From an uncultured virus (IMG/VR IMGVR_UViG_3300009136_000003) (taxonomy: Duplodnaviria > Heunggongvirae > Uroviricota > Caudoviricetes > Crassvirales), in IMG/VR virus record IMGVR_UViG_3300009136_000003: 20,000 bases of DNA; one strand, given 5' to 3'. The position numbers and the translations under genes are program-made. Numbering within the stretch: position 1 is the first letter of the stretch; the number at the start of each line of letters is the position of its first letter. This document shows positions 12,199 to 20,000 of the stretch, one piece after another. Below the pieces are notes generated by a model. The model was given only the letters and a program-made list of their open reading frames with translations. It did no database searches and was not told the origin of the DNA.

Positions 12199-14193
12199 AT
12201 GAGTTACTATAAATACAAACCTCGTGACCCACAAGTACAGGTAAATTGGACAGAAGCGGCAAGTAACCTTACAGCGGTTATTCAGGATGAGGTAACTCTC
12301 AGAAAAGAAAAGAAGTCGGCTATTGATGAGGCAACTCGTGAATACCAAGACCAACTAAACAATCAGCCACAAGGCGAGAGCACCTCTATAAGAGAGTGGG
12401 GATTAAAGTTTGGCGACCAAGCTCAGAAACAAATGATGATGCAAGAGCAGCTTTTAAAAAGCGGTATGCTCAATCCAAACGATTACACTCTAATGCGTCA
12501 GAATCTAGTTGACGGAACAGACCAAGCTTTTTCATTAATGGAACACTACCAAGAGGTATACGCAAACAAGATGGAGCGTATGAATTCACAAGATATAGCT
12601 ACATCATCTCAAGCACTTGAAGTTTGGATGATGGAGAATGCAGAGGGGTTTGCTAATTTTAATAACAGTCAGTTAGCCATTAATCCTGAGACAGGAAAGG
12701 TTACTGCGGCTATGATGAGAACTAACTCTGAGACAGGCGAAAGAGAACTAACCAAAGACCCTAATCAGTTTGTAGCGGTAAGTGCATTACAGGGTCAGAT
12801 ACTTACGGAGTATGATAAGTTTGACGTAGGGGCTGTGTCTTCAAAGTTTGTTGAGGAAACAGGGGCTTGGACTACAATAGAAAAGCTAACAGGTAGTAGG
12901 CTAGAGGCAGGTCAGTTGCTTACAAGCATTGACCCAACATCAAAAACATTAACTGAAGTAGACAGGGCGGCACTTGCAAAAGCATACCCCGGAGAAGATA
13001 TGGCGAGTATTATTGATATTTATCTTTCAGCAGAGAACGCAGCGATAGATGGTATCTTTGGAAACCCTTATAACCTAACATCTGTACTTACAGAGAATGT
13101 TGTTATGGCTGACAATGGAAAGAACTATACTTTTACCTACGATGAAGCTGAAGCCAATGCAAACCCTGAAATGATTCTTATGGAAAGACAGGGCGAGAGA
13201 AATGTCCCTGTGTTTGATGAAAGCAGAAACAAACACGCAGCAGAACAAGAAAAAGCTATACGCTCTTGGATGCGTGTTGATATTAGAAATAAAATAAACA
13301 AAGAAGAAAAAGCTGTGTCTGTTAAAGATTACACTCCTCCTACTTATGCTCCTAATTATACTGACCCTAAAGATGTAAGGGATGAAAAGAGGAAACTTAA
13401 AGAAGGAAAAGGACTTCAATCTCTTTGGAACTCTATGTTTGGTGCTACTGCTGAAGAAAGAAAAGGTATTGTACAAAATATAATGTCTAACCCTCTTGCT
13501 AGAAAAAAGGGACTTATAGCACTTATACCTTCTGATGATGGAAGTAGTATAGAGTTTATTTTTAATAATGACACACCTAGCAGGACAGTAGATATTTCAG
13601 GAGCTACAGGTGAGTCTTGGGCTCAGTTAGGTATTGAACTTACTGATTTAACTTTAGAAGATGCAGGTGTAGCAGATGGTGTTTATAATACGGACTTTAA
13701 AGATGTTGGTGCAGACAGAAATTTATGGCAAAAATATAATGTAGAAATAGACAATATGTTTGAATCTGATTTAGGTCAAATGAATTATACTAAAGAAGAA
13801 GATGAAGGGTTCTTAGGACAGAAAGAAGGCCTTGTTGCAGATAAACTAAATGAGCTATATGGGAAATACGGACTTGTTGTAAAACCATCGAATAACGCAA
13901 TTGATAATGAGGTAATTCTTACAATGTCAGGATATAATGGTACTACTGAGTTTCCTTCAACAAAAACTTTTAGCACAAATATATATACAAATGTAAACCA
14001 AGATAAAGAGTTACGAGAAATGCAAAAATGGATTACAGCAGCTCTTGCATCAACAAATAGAGTTGGTATGCTTGCTAAAGATAAAGGATTCTCAGGTAAA
14101 AAAGAGTTAACACCTGCACCTGCTGCACAATATGGCCCTTGTGTTGATGGGAAAAAATTAGACAACGAATCAGGAGTACCTGTAGACTGTTAA
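12199..14193 (+). CDS. Putative internal virion/ejection protein
   Basis: 664 aa with a helical Q/E/M-rich N-terminus. Lies between the small ejection-like gene and the giant gene. Function inferred from synteny only. Confidence 0.5.
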   Translation: MSYYKYKPRDPQVQVNWTEAASNLTAVIQDEVTLRKEKKSAIDEATREYQDQLNNQPQGESTSIREWGLKFGDQAQKQMMMQEQLLKSGMLNPNDYTLMRQNLVDGTDQAFSLMEHYQEVYANKMERMNSQDIATSSQALEVWMMENAEGFANFNNSQLAINPETGKVTAAMMRTNSETGERELTKDPNQFVAVSALQGQILTEYDKFDVGAVSSKFVEETGAWTTIEKLTGSRLEAGQLLTSIDPTSKTLTEVDRAALAKAYPGEDMASIIDIYLSAENAAIDGIFGNPYNLTSVLTENVVMADNGKNYTFTYDEAEANANPEMILMERQGERNVPVFDESRNKHAAEQEKAIRSWMRVDIRNKINKEEKAVSVKDYTPPTYAPNYTDPKDVRDEKRKLKEGKGLQSLWNSMFGATAEERKGIVQNIMSNPLARKKGLIALIPSDDGSSIEFIFNNDTPSRTVDISGATGESWAQLGIELTDLTLEDAGVADGVYNTDFKDVGADRNLWQKYNVEIDNMFESDLGQMNYTKEEDEGFLGQKEGLVADKLNELYGKYGLVVKPSNNAIDNEVILTMSGYNGTTEFPSTKTFSTNIYTNVNQDKELREMQKWITAALASTNRVGMLAKDKGFSGKKELTPAPAAQYGPCVDGKKLDNESGVPVDC

Positions 14194-14218
14194 CGGTAAT
14201 TGTAATAAAAAAAAATAA

Positions 14219-17200
14219 ATGGCAATACAAGAAATATATTACACCACTCCAAACGGAATGAAGATGAGTCAGACCGAGGCATTAGAACGCTACGGTAGTG
14301 AACAGTTTGATGCATTGGTTAACGAAGGTCAGTTAGTAGAATTTATTCAAGAAGAAGACCCTGAATTAAACCAAGGAGATAGTTTCTACGAATCACCCAA
14401 TGGAAATGTTTATACCGAAGGTGATTTAGCAAATCGATATGGTCTTGAAGCATTTAACAAATTAATAGACGAAGGTCATTTAAAAAAAAAAGATTCTCCT
14501 CAAGAAGTATCAAGCTTTGGGGGTGGAGATTTAGAGCCAACAGAGACTTTACCATATCAAGATTTACCTGAACCTACTGAACAAGATTTTTTTGAGGGTG
14601 GATTTGGGGATGCACTAAGAGGATTTGATGCTATAGTACCTCTAGGTATTGGAGACTTTATAGATGATATGACTCGTGCTGTTGCAGGTGGTATAAACCA
14701 AGGTATTGCAGGAGAGAACGCATCAGACCTTTTGTTCGCAGGGTCAATGGCTACGGATGAGGATATCGCTAGCTATATTGAAGCCAATCAAAACGCTCAA
14801 AAGTATGGGTCTTCTCAGGAAATGCAGGAGTACCAAAAAACCTACGAAGAATATGGAGGTGTTTTAGGTGTTGTTATGGGTCTTGCTAAATCAGGATTAA
14901 CAATACTACCCGAAATAATGTTAAGCTCATTTGCTGCTATGGCAGCCAACTCAGATGCTTTGGCTGCGGGAGGAACAATTGTTGGAGGTAGTGCAACAGC
15001 AGGTGCTTTAACAGCAGGTGCAGGAGCATCCGTTGTTGTTCCTGTAGTTGGAACAGTAGTAGGAGCAGCAGCCGGAGCTATTACAGGAGCAGCAGCATCG
15101 TTACCTTATGCATTTGCTGCGGCTAGTACGGCATTAGAAATGGGTGCTACTTTCTCTGAACTACTTCAAGGAGAAATTGATGGAGAATTAACTCCTGAAA
15201 AAATTAAGGCAGCCTTAAGCAACGAAAAAACTTACACAAGCATTAGAAACAAAGCAGTTGCAAGGGGTATTACTATAGGTGCTCTTGATATGCTTTCAGG
15301 TAAAGTAGGTGGTAGAATTGCATCTTCTGTATTAAAAAAAGGTGCGAGAGCTACAGGCATATCGTCAAGGGCTACAAAAATAAAGGCAGTAGCTGCGGCA
15401 AGTGCTGTAGAAGGAGTAGGTGGTTCAATAGGTGAGACTGCAGGTATTGCGGCAACTAATATAATTGGTGATACTAAAGGTCAGGATTTTGACATCTCTG
15501 AGATTATACTTGAAGGTATAGCTGAAATACCCGGTGGTGTAAAGGATATGGTTTCTGCTAGGTTTAGTAAACCTAAATATAAAGTAAACGGAGAAAGAGT
15601 TGATGCGGCTACCATAGACAGTATGATAGAAACAATGACTCTAGAGCAGCTTACCGAAAGTAGGATACAAATAGACAACGATTACGAGGGGAGAGATGCT
15701 GCATTGCAAGATAGAAAAGTAACACTATCTATAGAAAATCAGGTAAGAAAAGTAATACCCAATATTACTCCTGAAGCTGTTACTGAGATAGTTACGTTAC
15801 AGAAAGAACTACAATCACTTGAAGGAAACAAAACCGAAGTAGGTAAAAAAAGAGCGTCAGAAATTAGAGGTTCAATTAATGAAATTATGACCAATGAAAC
15901 TGCAGAAGCAGGTGTCGTTGAGGTAACAGATGAAGCGGTTGTTGCTAGAATAAAAGAGATTAAAGGTGACGACTCTGCTTACACTCAAGAAGAGTTTGAC
16001 AATATTAAAAAAATATTAGAGGCTGAAAATGAAGCTCAATTAGTAGAGGCACAAGAGGAACAGGTAATAACAAGTACTGAAGAGTTTAGAGGACTTGAAC
16101 AGTCAGAACAAATAGATTACCTAGAGAAGGCAACTAAAGAATTAGCAGCAGAGGCTGAAGCAGGTGGTAAAGTAGATTTTGAAATAACAGAATCACAAGC
16201 CTTGACAAGAGCAAATCAATTATTCCAAGATAATAAAAATGAAATAGGTAGACAAGAAAGGTTAGACAGTAGAGCGGAGAAAGAGAAAAAACAATTTGGA
16301 GAACAACACGCTGATGAGAAACTACCTTACGAAAAAGGTGCTGATGGAAAAGGAAGAGCTAAACTATACGACATTACAAAACCTAATGAGAAAGGAGTTG
16401 TTACTGCCGAGTATGTAAATCCCGAAACAGGAGTTGTAGACGTTATAATTAGCGGACAAAATGATGATAATTTTGTAGGGTATGTTAGGGTTTATGAAAA
16501 CGGTAAGCCAACAAATATGTTTACTGCTAAGATGGAGTCAACAGGAGACGCTTTCAAAGATATGATTACCGATGCTGAGGCTAAACTTCCTGACAACGCA
16601 GAGGTTGTTGAAACAACATCGATATCTATAGACGGATTAAAGTCATCTAGTAAATCAAAGCGAACAGAAAAAGTAGACGCTGATGGAAATGTTGTAACAA
16701 GACCAACGCCATATAGTGCCGCTACAAAAGAGTCTGTAGCAAGTGCCAAAGGAACTGACACAAATCCTTTTGAAAACTTTAAAACTACTGATAAAGCTGC
16801 AGCAGAAGCAGAGGTCGCTAAGATTGAAGCTGCATATCCGGGGATAACTGCAACAATAAATAAACGAAAAGGGCCTCCTGCTCCTCCACCTAGACCGGGG
16901 ACAAAAGACAAAGCTTCTGCTAAAGCAAAGCCTGAATATACAGTTTCTGTAAACCTTCCTGTTTTAGTGTCACCTAAATCAAACAACAAAACAAAAGTAG
17001 AAACAGATGCCGTTAAAAATTCACGTAAGCAACAATCTAAAGTTGAGCAGCAGGTAGACAACGCTAGAAAGGCTTTGAAAACTATTGACAATGAGATTAA
17101 AGTGGTGTATCATACTGACGATGCGTCTTACCGAGATGCTACAAACGAACAGTCAAGGGAGCAGTCTACTAATGGGGAGTATAATCCTACGACTAAAACC

Positions 17201-20000
17201 ATACACATAAACGGAACGAAGGCTAATAACAAAACAGTAGCACACGAGGTGTTCCACGCATTGCTGTTGAGGACAGGGATAACTAACGAGCAGGCTAAGG
17301 CTATTACGGATAAAATGCTAAAAGCGGTGAAGAAGACTGCATCGCCTGAGTTGATTGAAAAATTAGAAAAGTTCTCTAGCAATTATAAATCCTCACTACA
17401 GAGCGAGGAGAGTATAGCGGAGTTGTTTGGGTTACTAGCATCAGAGTATCCGAACCTAGACGCACCTACTCAGAGTATAGTAAAGAGATGGCTTGATAAG
17501 ATAGCTAAGATACTAAGGCTTAAGCCATTTACTGACGCTGAGGTTATTGACTTACTAAATGCGGTGTCTGCAAAGGTTGAGGCAGGACAAGAGATTACAG
17601 AGCAGGATGTTGCTATACTAGATGGTAGTGTTAGTGGTGTTATAAATACAAAAGCGAGAAAGCAAGCCTCTGTATTAACAAGTTTTACTTTGAAAAGGTT
17701 TCCTACAAATACAAATATAAAGTTATCGGAGGATACTCCTTTAAGTGATTTCAATGAAAAAAAATCCAACCTACTTGAATCGGATAGAATGACAGGAGCT
17801 TTTATAGCTGATGCTAATAATAATCCTGTGTTTAAATTCTTTGGTGGAATATACTTCCCACAGATAACAGGTAAGTGGTGGGCATCTAGAACTATTTCTA
17901 AGGCGAATGGGGTAGCCAAGAATATGAACGCTAATAGAGACAAGGATGGTTATATTTATGCAACACCAATCATAATGAAGCCGAACTCTCATATGAGTAA
18001 TCAAGATATGTTTGAGACTGTGTGGGAGTTTATGAAGTTTGATTTAAGGTCAAAGTCTAGTAAGGTAACTAAGAAGTTATTTCACGAATACTTAACCAAA
18101 GCTCTTACATTAAAATCAGTAAACTTATCTGAATCGGACTTAAATATAAAAAAGTCTGACAACATAGAAGTAATGATTAGTAAGCTAAACGATGTTTTAC
18201 TAGGCAAAGAAATAGATAATCTTAATTATGATTCTACTAAACCTGAATCAATAGATAACGCTAAAACAATAATTAAAGAATCAAACCTTTCGTTTGAAAA
18301 AAGGAAGGCAATTATAAAAGGTATTTTAGGAGACCCTAAGATAACCGAAGACAGAAAGTTTCCAACGGCAGGTTCTATATCAGAAGTGGCATCTAAGTTT
18401 GAGGAAGAAAAAACTAAGCAGGCAACTAAACTTTGGGATGTAGTAATGCTGATGAGAACAAAAGGAACTTTGTCTACAAAGGTTACTCCAAAGTCAGATG
18501 AATTTTACCATAAGTCATATCCTGCAGAGATATTTTCAGACCAAGAGATAGAGGTTTTCTTTTTAGATGGAGCTTATAATATAGACACAACATATCCTGT
18601 ACTTACTCAGTCATCAGGAAAAGTTTTCTCGTGGAAGGAGTATTCTGAAAAACATCCATCAGCGGCAATGGCATTAAGTCAGTATGGTAGGACTGCTAAG
18701 TTATCACAAGCTAGTGGTGATATAGTAGCAAGCCCTCAGTCTCGTAAGCAGAAGCCTAACTACAAAATAGCAAAAATTAATACACCCAACACAACTATAA
18801 ATGTTGTTGAAGGAGCAGGAACTGATAGTTTTGAGATAGCAACTAAAGATTATAAAGCCACCGAAGGAGTAGAAGGCTCTACAATAATTGGTTTTGTTAA
18901 AAATAAAGATTTTCCGGGAGAAAAAAAGAAAGAAACAAGGGGAGAGATTTTTATTCTTCAAGTAGGTGATAAAGGAAAAGGAACAGGTACTTCTTTAATG
19001 TTAGATGCATTAAGATTAATGAAAGAAAATGGAACAAAAACTGTTAAGTTTACAGTTCCAAGTAAAGAAGGAAAACCATTTAATGAATCTTTAGTTCGTA
19101 AGGGATATATAAATTTACTTAAAGTAAGCGATAGAACCGGTACTTCTGAATATGAAATAACAGATAAGGTTTTAGAAGACGCACCTCAGTCTCGTAAGCA
19201 GAAAATAGGGAGAACTACAAGACTAGCTCCTAATGGAAAGCAATCTAACTTAACTGACGTGCAGTATGATGCTGTAAGAACGCCTGCGTTTAAGAAGTGG
19301 TTCGGTAATTGGGAGACAGACCCTGAGAATGCGAGTAAAGTAGTGGACGAGAATGGTGAGCCTAGAGTTGTATGGAGAGGCAGGGACACAAGTAAAGGTG
19401 ATGTTGGAGATGTAATAGATATTGGAAAAACCAATGAGGGTGCTTTCTTTGCTGATAATAAAGAGGCTTCCGATTTGTTTATGTCTGAGTTTTTAGGAAT
19501 TAAAAAAGGTGATTATGAAATAATTGAATCGTTTTTAAACATAAGAACCCCGGAAGTATTTGAAGATTTTTGGAATGATTTTATGGGTAATAGAAATTCT
19601 AATAAACCTAATTATAAATACGAACCAAAAAAAGGTGTTGATGGAGCTATAATAAATGATGACGTTTGGCTACAAGAATCAGAAATAGATTGGAAAGAAG
19701 GGCAGTTTGATGAAAATGGTAATCAATTAGAAGAAGAGGTTATTAAAGAAATCGCTTTAGAAGGCAAGCAATTTATTGTTTTTAAACCTAACCAAATAAA
19801 ATCAGCCGATGGCAGCAACACTACTTTTGACCCAAACAAGCCGTCTATACGTAAGCAACAAGACGACAGCAAAGAGGTTAGTGAAATAGAGGGTGAGATT
19901 CAATATTTAGAATCCGAGATTGCAGACAAGCAAGAGGAAATTGCGGCTGAAAAATCTGATACCAAGGATGACATACAGAAAAAGAAGGATGAGATAGCTA
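14219..20000 (+). CDS. Giant polyvalent virion (ejection) protein, 3' truncated: zincin + unknown domain + GNAT + ADP-ribosyltransferase-like domains
   Basis: Manually translated from ATG 14219 (MAIQEIYYTTPNG...) with no stop to the window end (at least 1927 codons). Absent from the ORF track because no stop falls inside the window. A-rich initiation region. Confidence 0.9.
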   Translation, partial: MAIQEIYYTTPNGMKMSQTEALERYGSEQFDALVNEGQLVEFIQEEDPELNQGDSFYESPNGNVYTEGDLANRYGLEAFNKLIDEGHLKKKDSPQEVSSFGGGDLEPTETLPYQDLPEPTEQDFFEGGFGDALRGFDAIVPLGIGDFIDDMTRAVAGGINQGIAGENASDLLFAGSMATDEDIASYIEANQNAQKYGSSQEMQEYQKTYEEYGGVLGVVMGLAKSGLTILPEIMLSSFAAMAANSDALAAGGTIVGGSATAGALTAGAGASVVVPVVGTVVGAAAGAITGAAASLPYAFAAASTALEMGATFSELLQGEIDGELTPEKIKAALSNEKTYTSIRNKAVARGITIGALDMLSGKVGGRIASSVLKKGARATGISSRATKIKAVAAASAVEGVGGSIGETAGIAATNIIGDTKGQDFDISEIILEGIAEIPGGVKDMVSARFSKPKYKVNGERVDAATIDSMIETMTLEQLTESRIQIDNDYEGRDAALQDRKVTLSIENQVRKVIPNITPEAVTEIVTLQKELQSLEGNKTEVGKKRASEIRGSINEIMTNETAEAGVVEVTDEAVVARIKEIKGDDSAYTQEEFDNIKKILEAENEAQLVEAQEEQVITSTEEFRGLEQSEQIDYLEKATKELAAEAEAGGKVDFEITESQALTRANQLFQDNKNEIGRQERLDSRAEKEKKQFGEQHADEKLPYEKGADGKGRAKLYDITKPNEKGVVTAEYVNPETGVVDVIISGQNDDNFVGYVRVYENGKPTNMFTAKMESTGDAFKDMITDAEAKLPDNAEVVETTSISIDGLKSSSKSKRTEKVDADGNVVTRPTPYSAATKESVASAKGTDTNPFENFKTTDKAAAEAEVAKIEAAYPGITATINKRKGPPAPPPRPGTKDKASAKAKPEYTVSVNLPVLVSPKSNNKTKVETDAVKNSRKQQSKVEQQVDNARKALKTIDNEIKVVYHTDDASYRDATNEQSREQSTNGEYNPTTKTIHINGTKANNKTVAHEVFHALLLRTGITNEQAKAITDKMLKAVKKTASPELIEKLEKFSSNYKSSLQSEESIAELFGLLASEYPNLDAPTQSIVKRWLDKIAKILRLKPFTDAEVIDLLNAVSAKVEAGQEITEQDVAILDGSVSGVINTKARKQASVLTSFTLKRFPTNTNIKLSEDTPLSDFNEKKSNLLESDRMTGAFIADANNNPVFKFFGGIYFPQITGKWWASRTISKANGVAKNMNANRDKDGYIYATPIIMKPNSHMSNQDMFETVWEFMKFDLRSKSSKVTKKLFHEYLTKALTLKSVNLSESDLNIKKSDNIEVMISKLNDVLLGKEIDNLNYDSTKPESIDNAKTIIKESNLSFEKRKAIIKGILGDPKITEDRKFPTAGSISEVASKFEEEKTKQATKLWDVVMLMRTKGTLSTKVTPKSDEFYHKSYPAEIFSDQEIEVFFLDGAYNIDTTYPVLTQSSGKVFSWKEYSEKHPSAAMALSQYGRTAKLSQASGDIVASPQSRKQKPNYKIAKINTPNTTINVVEGAGTDSFEIATKDYKATEGVEGSTIIGFVKNKDFPGEKKKETRGEIFILQVGDKGKGTGTSLMLDALRLMKENGTKTVKFTVPSKEGKPFNESLVRKGYINLLKVSDRTGTSEYEITDKVLEDAPQSRKQKIGRTTRLAPNGKQSNLTDVQYDAVRTPAFKKWFGNWETDPENASKVVDENGEPRVVWRGRDTSKGDVGDVIDIGKTNEGAFFADNKEASDLFMSEFLGIKKGDYEIIESFLNIRTPEVFEDFWNDFMGNRNSNKPNYKYEPKKGVDGAIINDDVWLQESEIDWKEGQFDENGNQLEEEVIKEIALEGKQFIVFKPNQIKSADGSNTTFDPNKPSIRKQQDDSKEVSEIEGEIQYLESEIADKQEEIAAEKSDTKDDIQKKKDEIA
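14237..14482 (+). repeat. Tandem protein repeat (49-aa period) at the N-terminus of the giant ORF
   Basis: YYTTPNGMKMSQTEALERYGSEQFDALVNEGQL versus FYESPNGNVYTEGDLANRYGLEAFNKLIDEGHL. Y, PNG, RYG, E, F, L, EG and L are in exact register. Confidence 0.85.
17036..17656 (+). other. Zincin-like metallopeptidase domain within the giant ORF
   Basis: GEYNPTTKTIHIN...TVAHEVFH (HExxH at 17243-17257) and a downstream EESIAE (17405-17422) that could supply the third Zn ligand. Confidence 0.85.
18734..19203 (+). repeat. Perfect 20-nt direct repeat CCTCAGTCTCGTAAGCAGAA at 18734-18753 and 19184-19203
   Basis: Two identical copies 450 nt apart, in the same frame, both encoding PQSRKQK. Confidence 0.95.
18755..19183 (+). 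other. GNAT acetyltransferase-like domain within the giant ORF
   Basis: IFILQVGDKGKGTGTSLMLDALRLMKENG (motif A-like, KGKGTG at 18971-18988), followed by TVKF..PSKEGKPFNESLVRKGY (motif B-like). Confidence 0.7.
19205..19849 (+). other. ADP-ribosyltransferase-like (ART-PolyVal-type) domain within the giant ORF
   Basis: LAPNGKQSNL..VRTPAFKKWFGNWE..SKVVDENGEPRVVWRG..GAFFA..FLNIRTP..GVDGAI..FIVFKPNQIKSA..FDP follows the motif order of the polyvalent-protein ART family. Confidence 0.75.

Follow-up and report, generated by a model that had tools for sequence, protein, structure and literature searches.

A repeated in-frame linker in the giant polyvalent protein gene of an Elemovirus-like phage as a probable joint for cassette exchange

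We analyzed a stretch of 20,000 nucleotides (the window) from an uncultured virus of the Crassvirales (IMG/VR record IMGVR_UViG_3300009136_000003), which ends in a giant gene carrying an exact repeat on either side of a GNAT-fold module. The genes upstream of the giant gene match PHROG virion families and crAss_MUZ, a crAss-type muzzle domain, and the giant gene itself joins unrelated domains in one open reading frame: a zincin-like metallopeptidase (MPTase), a GNAT fold, ART-PolyVal, and unknown modules. Its MPTase is 41% identical to an Elemovirus "structural protein," the closest cultured match (Flavobacterium phages), and public runs containing this stretch are mostly marine; the source is an Elemovirus-like Bacteroidota phage. 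The zincin and GNAT labels given in a preliminary description of the window, made from the sequence letters, held up. The zincin signature, HEVFH with a downstream EE, was invariant in 89 of 89 aligned sequences, and although the GNAT-fold module had no Pfam match in a profile search, its AlphaFold2 model (pLDDT 90.3) matched GNAT structures (best E 1.9e-5); 88 relatives of this module were present among protein representatives, many of them stand-alone. Polyvalent-associated domains comprise ART-PolyVal, above cut-off in the window, LPD23 in the related genes L100 and L028, and ParB_N in L123, and by every testable feature the giant protein fits the PMC5512222 definition of a polyvalent protein. 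Judging from the position of its gene and from analogues such as phi24B gp47 (bioRxiv 10.64898/2026.04.10.717836), it is probably packed into the virion and injected.

The sequence CCTCAGTCTCGTAAGCAGAA occurs at 18734 and again at 19184, two exact 20-nt copies that lie 450 nt apart and in frame and encode PQSRKQK; as described previously, the identity includes synonymous positions. This is the longest of all maximal exact repeats in the 20-kb window, the runner-up measuring 16 nt. The core of the repeat was said to recur at 17024 and 19850, which proved correct, the linker copies at 17023 and 19849 having 13 nt in common, one more than noted; of the five RKQ in the giant protein (17024, 17657, 18743, 19193, and 19850), the one at 17657 had been overlooked. 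All five lie at module borders. Their Arg is written CGT in four copies and AGA at 17657, in a gene whose 61 Arg codons include 35 AGA, the dominant codon as claimed, and six CGT, four of which are the Arg of RKQ. Given the peptide, codon identity between the two PQSRKQ copies had p=0.005 under the codon usage of the gene and arose in 4 of 300 synonymous resamplings, so nucleotide identity exceeds what the peptide requires. Base composition also changes along the gene, with recomputed GC of 0.30 at 18901-19140 (GNAT) and 0.43 at 17221-17460 (zincin), matching earlier hand counts, and GC at third codon positions (GC3) differs by module (Table 1). Matches to CGTAAGCA in the window all fell inside the giant gene (4/4), as did 4/5 in the homologous gene of the related record G002, and a Chi-like genome-wide motif was thereby ruled out; two genes upstream of the giant gene in G002 contained no R[KQ]Q.

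Table 1. Parts of the giant gene and their positions in the window
Feature	Position	Strand	GC3	Remarks
Giant polyvalent protein gene	14219..19999	+		More than 1927 aa, running past the 3′ end of the window; closes the virion block and is its largest gene
Linker copy before MPTase (NS-RKQ-Q)	17023..17035	+		13 nt identical to 19849-19861
Zincin-like MPTase	17036..17608	+	0.41	HEVFH at 17240-17254 plus downstream EE; weak Astacin/M78 matches below cut-off
RKQ junction after MPTase	17657..17665	+		AGA-written; peptide kept, DNA not common
Module B	17666..18733	+	0.29	No Pfam or PHROG match; three different modules follow at the linker in L101, L103, and L111
Repeat copy 1 (PQSRKQK)	18734..18753	+		Left joint of the GNAT cassette
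GNAT-fold module	18752..19183	+	0.14	Cassette unit of 450 nt with one linker; stand-alone relatives
Repeat copy 2	19184..19203	+		Right joint; 26-30 nt in common with linkers of relatives
ART-PolyVal module	19204..19848	+	0.27	PF18760, residues 1710-1870, E 1.7e-11; conserved LAPNG leader
Last linker in window (PSI-RKQ-Q)	19849..19861	+		Variant preceding the C-terminal core in L001 and L108
Start of charged helical segment	19862..20000	+		Just upstream of MPTase in L097, L098, and L111

Relatives were collected by scans of viral and metagenome contigs, two of which contributed the best 80 of 117 and the best 80 of 88 matches. This gave 176 loci, 169 with an MPTase match, which together with the window yielded 129 distinct genes; genes shorter than 1300 aa were left out of the codon, linker-variant, and all-gene breakpoint counts, for which 123 were kept. 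When the genes were cut at R[KQ]Q, a variable array emerged that separates the MPTase from a conserved core of ~1100-1400 residues at the C terminus. Instead of the fixed domain order that would speak against module exchange, we found modules differing in kind, number, and order, among which LPD23, a second GNAT, ParB_N, and DUF7178 could be named. The GNAT module used alone as a query found no locus in viral contigs, and G001 (16.5 kb), the record nearest to the window, had no MPTase match. An exact 18-mer scan of viral contigs returned 11 stretches, of which four were L001-L003 again and seven, in frames of 35-86 residues, were dismissed as chance.

The GNAT cassette has moved among these genes. 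Its DNA matches that of L100 at 96.8% identity (alignment 18734-19202) and that of L101 at 97.7% (18730-19203), and in both relatives it has other neighbors on either side; the MPTases of L100 and L101 are ~75% identical to that of the window, with synonymous sites near saturation. In these same pairs, identical residues are encoded by identical codons in 95-96% of cases in the GNAT cassette versus 51-54% in the MPTase, and we therefore conclude that the cassette moved recently between diverged genes. It has six different upstream neighbors (in the window, L100, L101, P0001, P0003, and P0004) and four downstream ones (ART, two cores, and the module of P0007), always meeting them at SRKQ. Linkers of diverged genomes with near-saturated synonymous sites are exactly alike over 26-30 nt, and hybrid linkers exist, the GNAT of L100 ending in a core-type linker.

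Several arrangements in the arrays deserve separate mention. L100 carries two different GNAT cassettes in tandem (L100:8034-8939), one matching Pfam Acetyltransf_10 and the other being the cassette of the window. A 156-residue cassette in L111 (L111:11696-12163), with a GC3 of 0.60 between modules of 0.31-0.32, is a recent foreign module that already carries the linker. Mini-units of 9 or 18 residues, barely more than a linker (L001:11681-11734, L100:6594-6647, L097:4343-4369, and L031:11999-12025), are present in some alleles and absent from close relatives, as in L097 versus L098. A module of leucine-rich 20-residue tandem repeats, with long exact DNA repeats, lies in the variable array of L004 (residues ~1830-1990), L066, L079, and L146. 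Distant GNAT relatives in other proteins (P0013, P0042, P0055, and P0066) sit between repeated G/H/P-rich spacers, which suggests that the GNAT family serves as a cassette in other linker systems too. The charged helical segment that follows the last RKQ of the window (19862-20000) joins the MPTase without a linker in L097, L098, and L111; it may have been relocated or duplicated via the 13-nt repeat at 17023/19849, possibly with a second MPTase beyond the window. Upstream of the MPTase of the window is a short proline run (KGPPAPPPRPG, 16870-16900), and two related records encode their own GroES/GroEL pair (G002:C1:42546-44422 and L177:35607-37420).

Breakpoints between genes concentrated at the linker. 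In the close clade, represented by 15 closely related genes chosen by hand and compared in alignments with minima of 150 nt and 85%, 19 of 26 variable-region alignment ends lay −25..+20 nt from a linker in each gene of the pair; such linker windows cover ~7% of the variable region. With breakpoints collapsed into clusters over the 123 genes, 34 of 68 lay at an R[KQ]Q linker, compared with 3.1% per gene, and 8 of 13 did so in the closest group. The expectation that domain breakpoints would fall on the repeat was thus borne out for most ends in the close clade and for half of the clusters, about half lying elsewhere.

To look at populations, we aligned Logan contigs from four studies (X1, X4, X7, and X8) to positions 14000-20000; since this material consists of contigs, it speaks to presence only. 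Module B, with 4 differences over 1185 nt in X1, passes there at 18750 into the start of an LPD23-type module, whose end leads into 19184. Among the X4 contigs, one has module B followed by ~490 other letters and a linker, a second has a different module with GNAT beginning exactly at 18734, and repeat 2 carries an inserted spacer of 18 residues. X8 contains GNAT (18724-19202) with foreign flanks, and X7 contains a GNAT-less in-frame allele that runs from 18751 to 19210 with 26 linker-like letters. Alleles joined at the repeat in these populations include replacements, extensions, and forms lacking the GNAT. The clean deletion of 450 nt was not found in the contigs of the four runs. X1 also contains the arrangement of the window with 0 differences over 19184-20000, and an X8 joint from 17023 to 19860 was not taken as a deletion, with unknown letters lying between.

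We were concerned that assemblers might have joined modules of co-occurring phages at a common 20-30-nt repeat. The close relatives are all metagenome contigs, Logan contigs often stop at the linker, and among the pieces listed none bridges the B/GNAT junction of the window by 31 letters on each side. Such joining presupposes, however, that linker DNA is already common to different phages between different modules, which is the finding itself. Several Logan contigs extend for hundreds of letters to either side of a junction (X4 records 14 and 15; X8 record 30), the same architecture occurs in separate assemblies (L001, L002, and L107), and an assembly artifact would explain single combinations at most. 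We consider this origin of the pattern barely credible.

The peptide and the DNA of the linker follow different rules. In each of the three identity bands into which the genes fell, the variable region contained 8- to 13-fold more R[KQ]Q than expected (42, 46, and 119 observed versus 3.3, 5.0, and 15.6 expected), and the N-terminal part was not enriched. In the same bands, CGT accounted for 34/35, 26/35, and 37/99 of the Arg codons at variable R[KQ]Q junctions and for 139/1417, 222/3021, and 523/7916 (7-10%) among other Arg. The first post-MPTase junction, more fixed than the swapping junctions, retains the peptide but mostly with AGA, CGT accounting for 1/7, 1/11, and 2/20. The same 18 nt stand behind unrelated modules in 14 of 24 PQSRKQ linkers, and in other clades a gene repeats linker DNA particular to its clade. 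RFQ is enriched too, and variants of the RKS and RQS type occupy the same junction in other lineages. We conclude that the linker also functions at the level of the protein, because the R-x-[Q/S] peptide is conserved more widely than the DNA and because, right after the MPTase, the junction retains its peptide with mostly AGA. Conservation of the peptide does not depend on common DNA, and uniform DNA is seen at junctions with active exchange. An RFS at residue 448 (window 15560-15568), in the N-terminal body and conserved in L001-L003, fits R-x-[Q/S] and is a possible further processing site. A predicted complex of the MPTase with a 31-residue linker peptide and Zn scored 0.09, with the mark at 0.32, and carries no weight either way.

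These observations could be read as a protein motif alone, in which the linker is conserved as a cleavage or translocation peptide, its DNA identity reflects recent common ancestry of copied linkers, and breakpoints fall at the linker only through selection against other junctions. Such a reading accommodates the family-wide R-x-[Q/S] with mixed codons in distant members (CGT 37/99, AGA 38/99), the existence of the RKS, RQS, and RFQ variants, the retention of an AGA-written RKQ after the MPTase, and the Elemovirus linkers, which are not identical in DNA. It does not account for unrelated modules, with GC3 from 0.14 to 0.60, ending in nearly the same 18 nt, for 26-30 linker nt exactly in common between genomes whose synonymous sites are near saturation, for the 35 nt in common between two junctions of L103 and the 30 nt between those of L100, or for alignments that end inside the linker itself. 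We regard a purely protein-level origin as unlikely.

Exchange at a fixed position by a dedicated site-specific system, resembling a shufflon or an integron, with a recombinase recognizing the CGTAAGCAG core, would explain why CGTAAGCA was invariant at 10 of 10 aligned junctions, why CGT is enriched even in distant lineages, and why all four motif matches of the window lie in the giant gene. The tyrosine integrase family PF00589 was nevertheless found in 0/5 related records, of which two are 90% complete or more, in a search that was positive in 14/14 control genomes and was made with PF00589 only, serine and host recombinases lying outside it. Dyad symmetry was not seen by eye, and other clades have their own linker DNA. 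Common stretches range from ~9 to 35 nt and hybrid linkers and mini-units occur, which is why homology-driven crossing fits better than a fixed cut; we hold a dedicated system to be very improbable.

Taken together, the mobile GNAT cassette, the breakpoints, and the codon uniformity support the proposal of the preliminary description that the linker doubles as a recombination joint. The linker is likely an in-frame joint at which related phages swap cassettes by short-homology recombination, its peptide being separately constrained. In the scheme we propose, the protein has conserved N- and C-terminal bodies and an MPTase, after which comes a variable effector array (GNAT, ART-PolyVal, LPD23, ParB-like, DUF7178, and unknown modules), and every cassette of the array closes with the linker motif [P]-x-[S/T/K]-R-[K/Q]-Q. 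Linker DNA in the clade of the window forms a common homology island of 18-30 nt, where crossover between co-infecting related phages would replace, add, or remove cassettes in frame, and unequal crossing or slippage would leave the mini-units of 9 and 18 residues. The engine would most likely be Sak or ERF, annealing proteins of the Rad52-like type, working with the phage exonuclease. PMC3945230 counts Sak and Erf among the Rad52-like phage recombinases; Sak (PF06378, E 1e-55) adjoins a DUF3799 nuclease and DUF3127 in G002, and ERF and a 5′-3′ exonuclease are annotated in Elemovirus. The linker peptide would most likely be the putative site at which the MPTase cuts to free the modules, and the need for a cut site would make only linker-bearing junctions useful, so that repeated exchange would keep the DNA of active junctions uniform. 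The acting recombinase, the linker cleavage, the target of the GNAT, and injection are parts of this scheme that we infer.

A number of points weigh against exchange at the linker as we describe it, besides the metagenomic origin of all close relatives, the unbridged B/GNAT junction, and the missing 450-nt deletion joint. The uniformity of linker DNA may stem from homogenization by exchange instead of selection on that DNA, and the junction and codon counts run over related genomes, which are not independent events. The other 34 of the 68 collapsed breakpoints lie away from R[KQ]Q, in a count that did not include R-x-S linkers; some fall within ART or within module B, examples being the point where the conserved ART leader stops and a module B indel. 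Among 68 Elemovirus records we saw no cassette change over 6 kb, and the Elemovirus protein has one R[KQ]Q, written AGA; the DNA joint is therefore a property of some lineages. Sak was found in 2/5 related records and ERF in 0/5. Since the minimum homology for Red-beta is 30 bp according to PMC3945230, a joint of 20 nt is short, and joints of 20-30 nt would work at a low rate.

Beyond a joint, the linker might be a two-level code under selection, with the peptide serving as the MPTase cut site for freeing each injected effector and the DNA as a population-wide standard joint, a possibility that we advance as doubtful. If it were true, the rare codons would be kept because compatibility with a common cassette pool pays, and the system would amount to an integron-like array without an integrase, held in one reading frame across a phage clade. 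The linker also divides the giant proteins into modules and thus provides a list of unknown, probably injected counter-defense effectors of Bacteroidota phages.

In the literature we found no description of in-frame DNA joints in polyvalent proteins, subscription journals being mostly outside our coverage. The shufflons and integrons differ in the tyrosine recombinase, which the PF00589 search did not find in the five related records. The polymorphic toxins, as described in PMC3482391, are similar in that recombination exchanges their effector domains while the delivery body stays the same, and release is often autoproteolytic; there, however, one C-terminal tip is replaced from stand-alone cassettes with an immunity gene, whereas here several internal cassettes are chained before a conserved core and variation is not confined to the C terminus. 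In G002, no orphan module ORFs flank the gene and no motif-bearing orphan cassettes were found, in a search that did not scan immunity families. The closest cultured homolog, the giant structural protein of Flavobacterium phage elemoA (MT497074.1, 3667 aa), has the related MPTase, homologous virion genes, and R-x-Q at module junctions, but its linkers are not DNA-identical, and no cassette change showed among the 68 Elemovirus records over the 6 kb compared.

The polyvalent proteins of PMC5512222, in the parts of that paper available to us, have the same MPTase hub, GNAT beside ART, ART-PolyVal, and LPD23 (here in relatives), and the paper predicts autoproteolytic domain release by the MPTase and repeated domain accretion. 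It differs in that those parts give no junction motif, cleavage site, or route of DNA exchange, the word "linker" being absent from the main text. Where the founding paper described accretion only, the linker gives a nucleotide-level route by which polyvalent proteins gain and trade domains, and R-x-Q/S becomes a candidate site for the long-predicted self-processing by the MPTase. Short conserved boundary sequences were reportedly proposed for phage mosaicism in the original lambdoid papers.

Here, homology between mosaics starts and stops at a short common sequence. As in the boundary-sequence mosaicism treated in PMC3029335, homologous recombination at such a sequence would create sharp mosaic junctions; that paper states that boundary sequences cannot be found at most mosaic boundaries. 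The joints here, in contrast, are internal to a single reading frame, number several in each gene, and code for a conserved peptide. The locus offers a clear example from nature of the boundary-sequence model, here within one gene.

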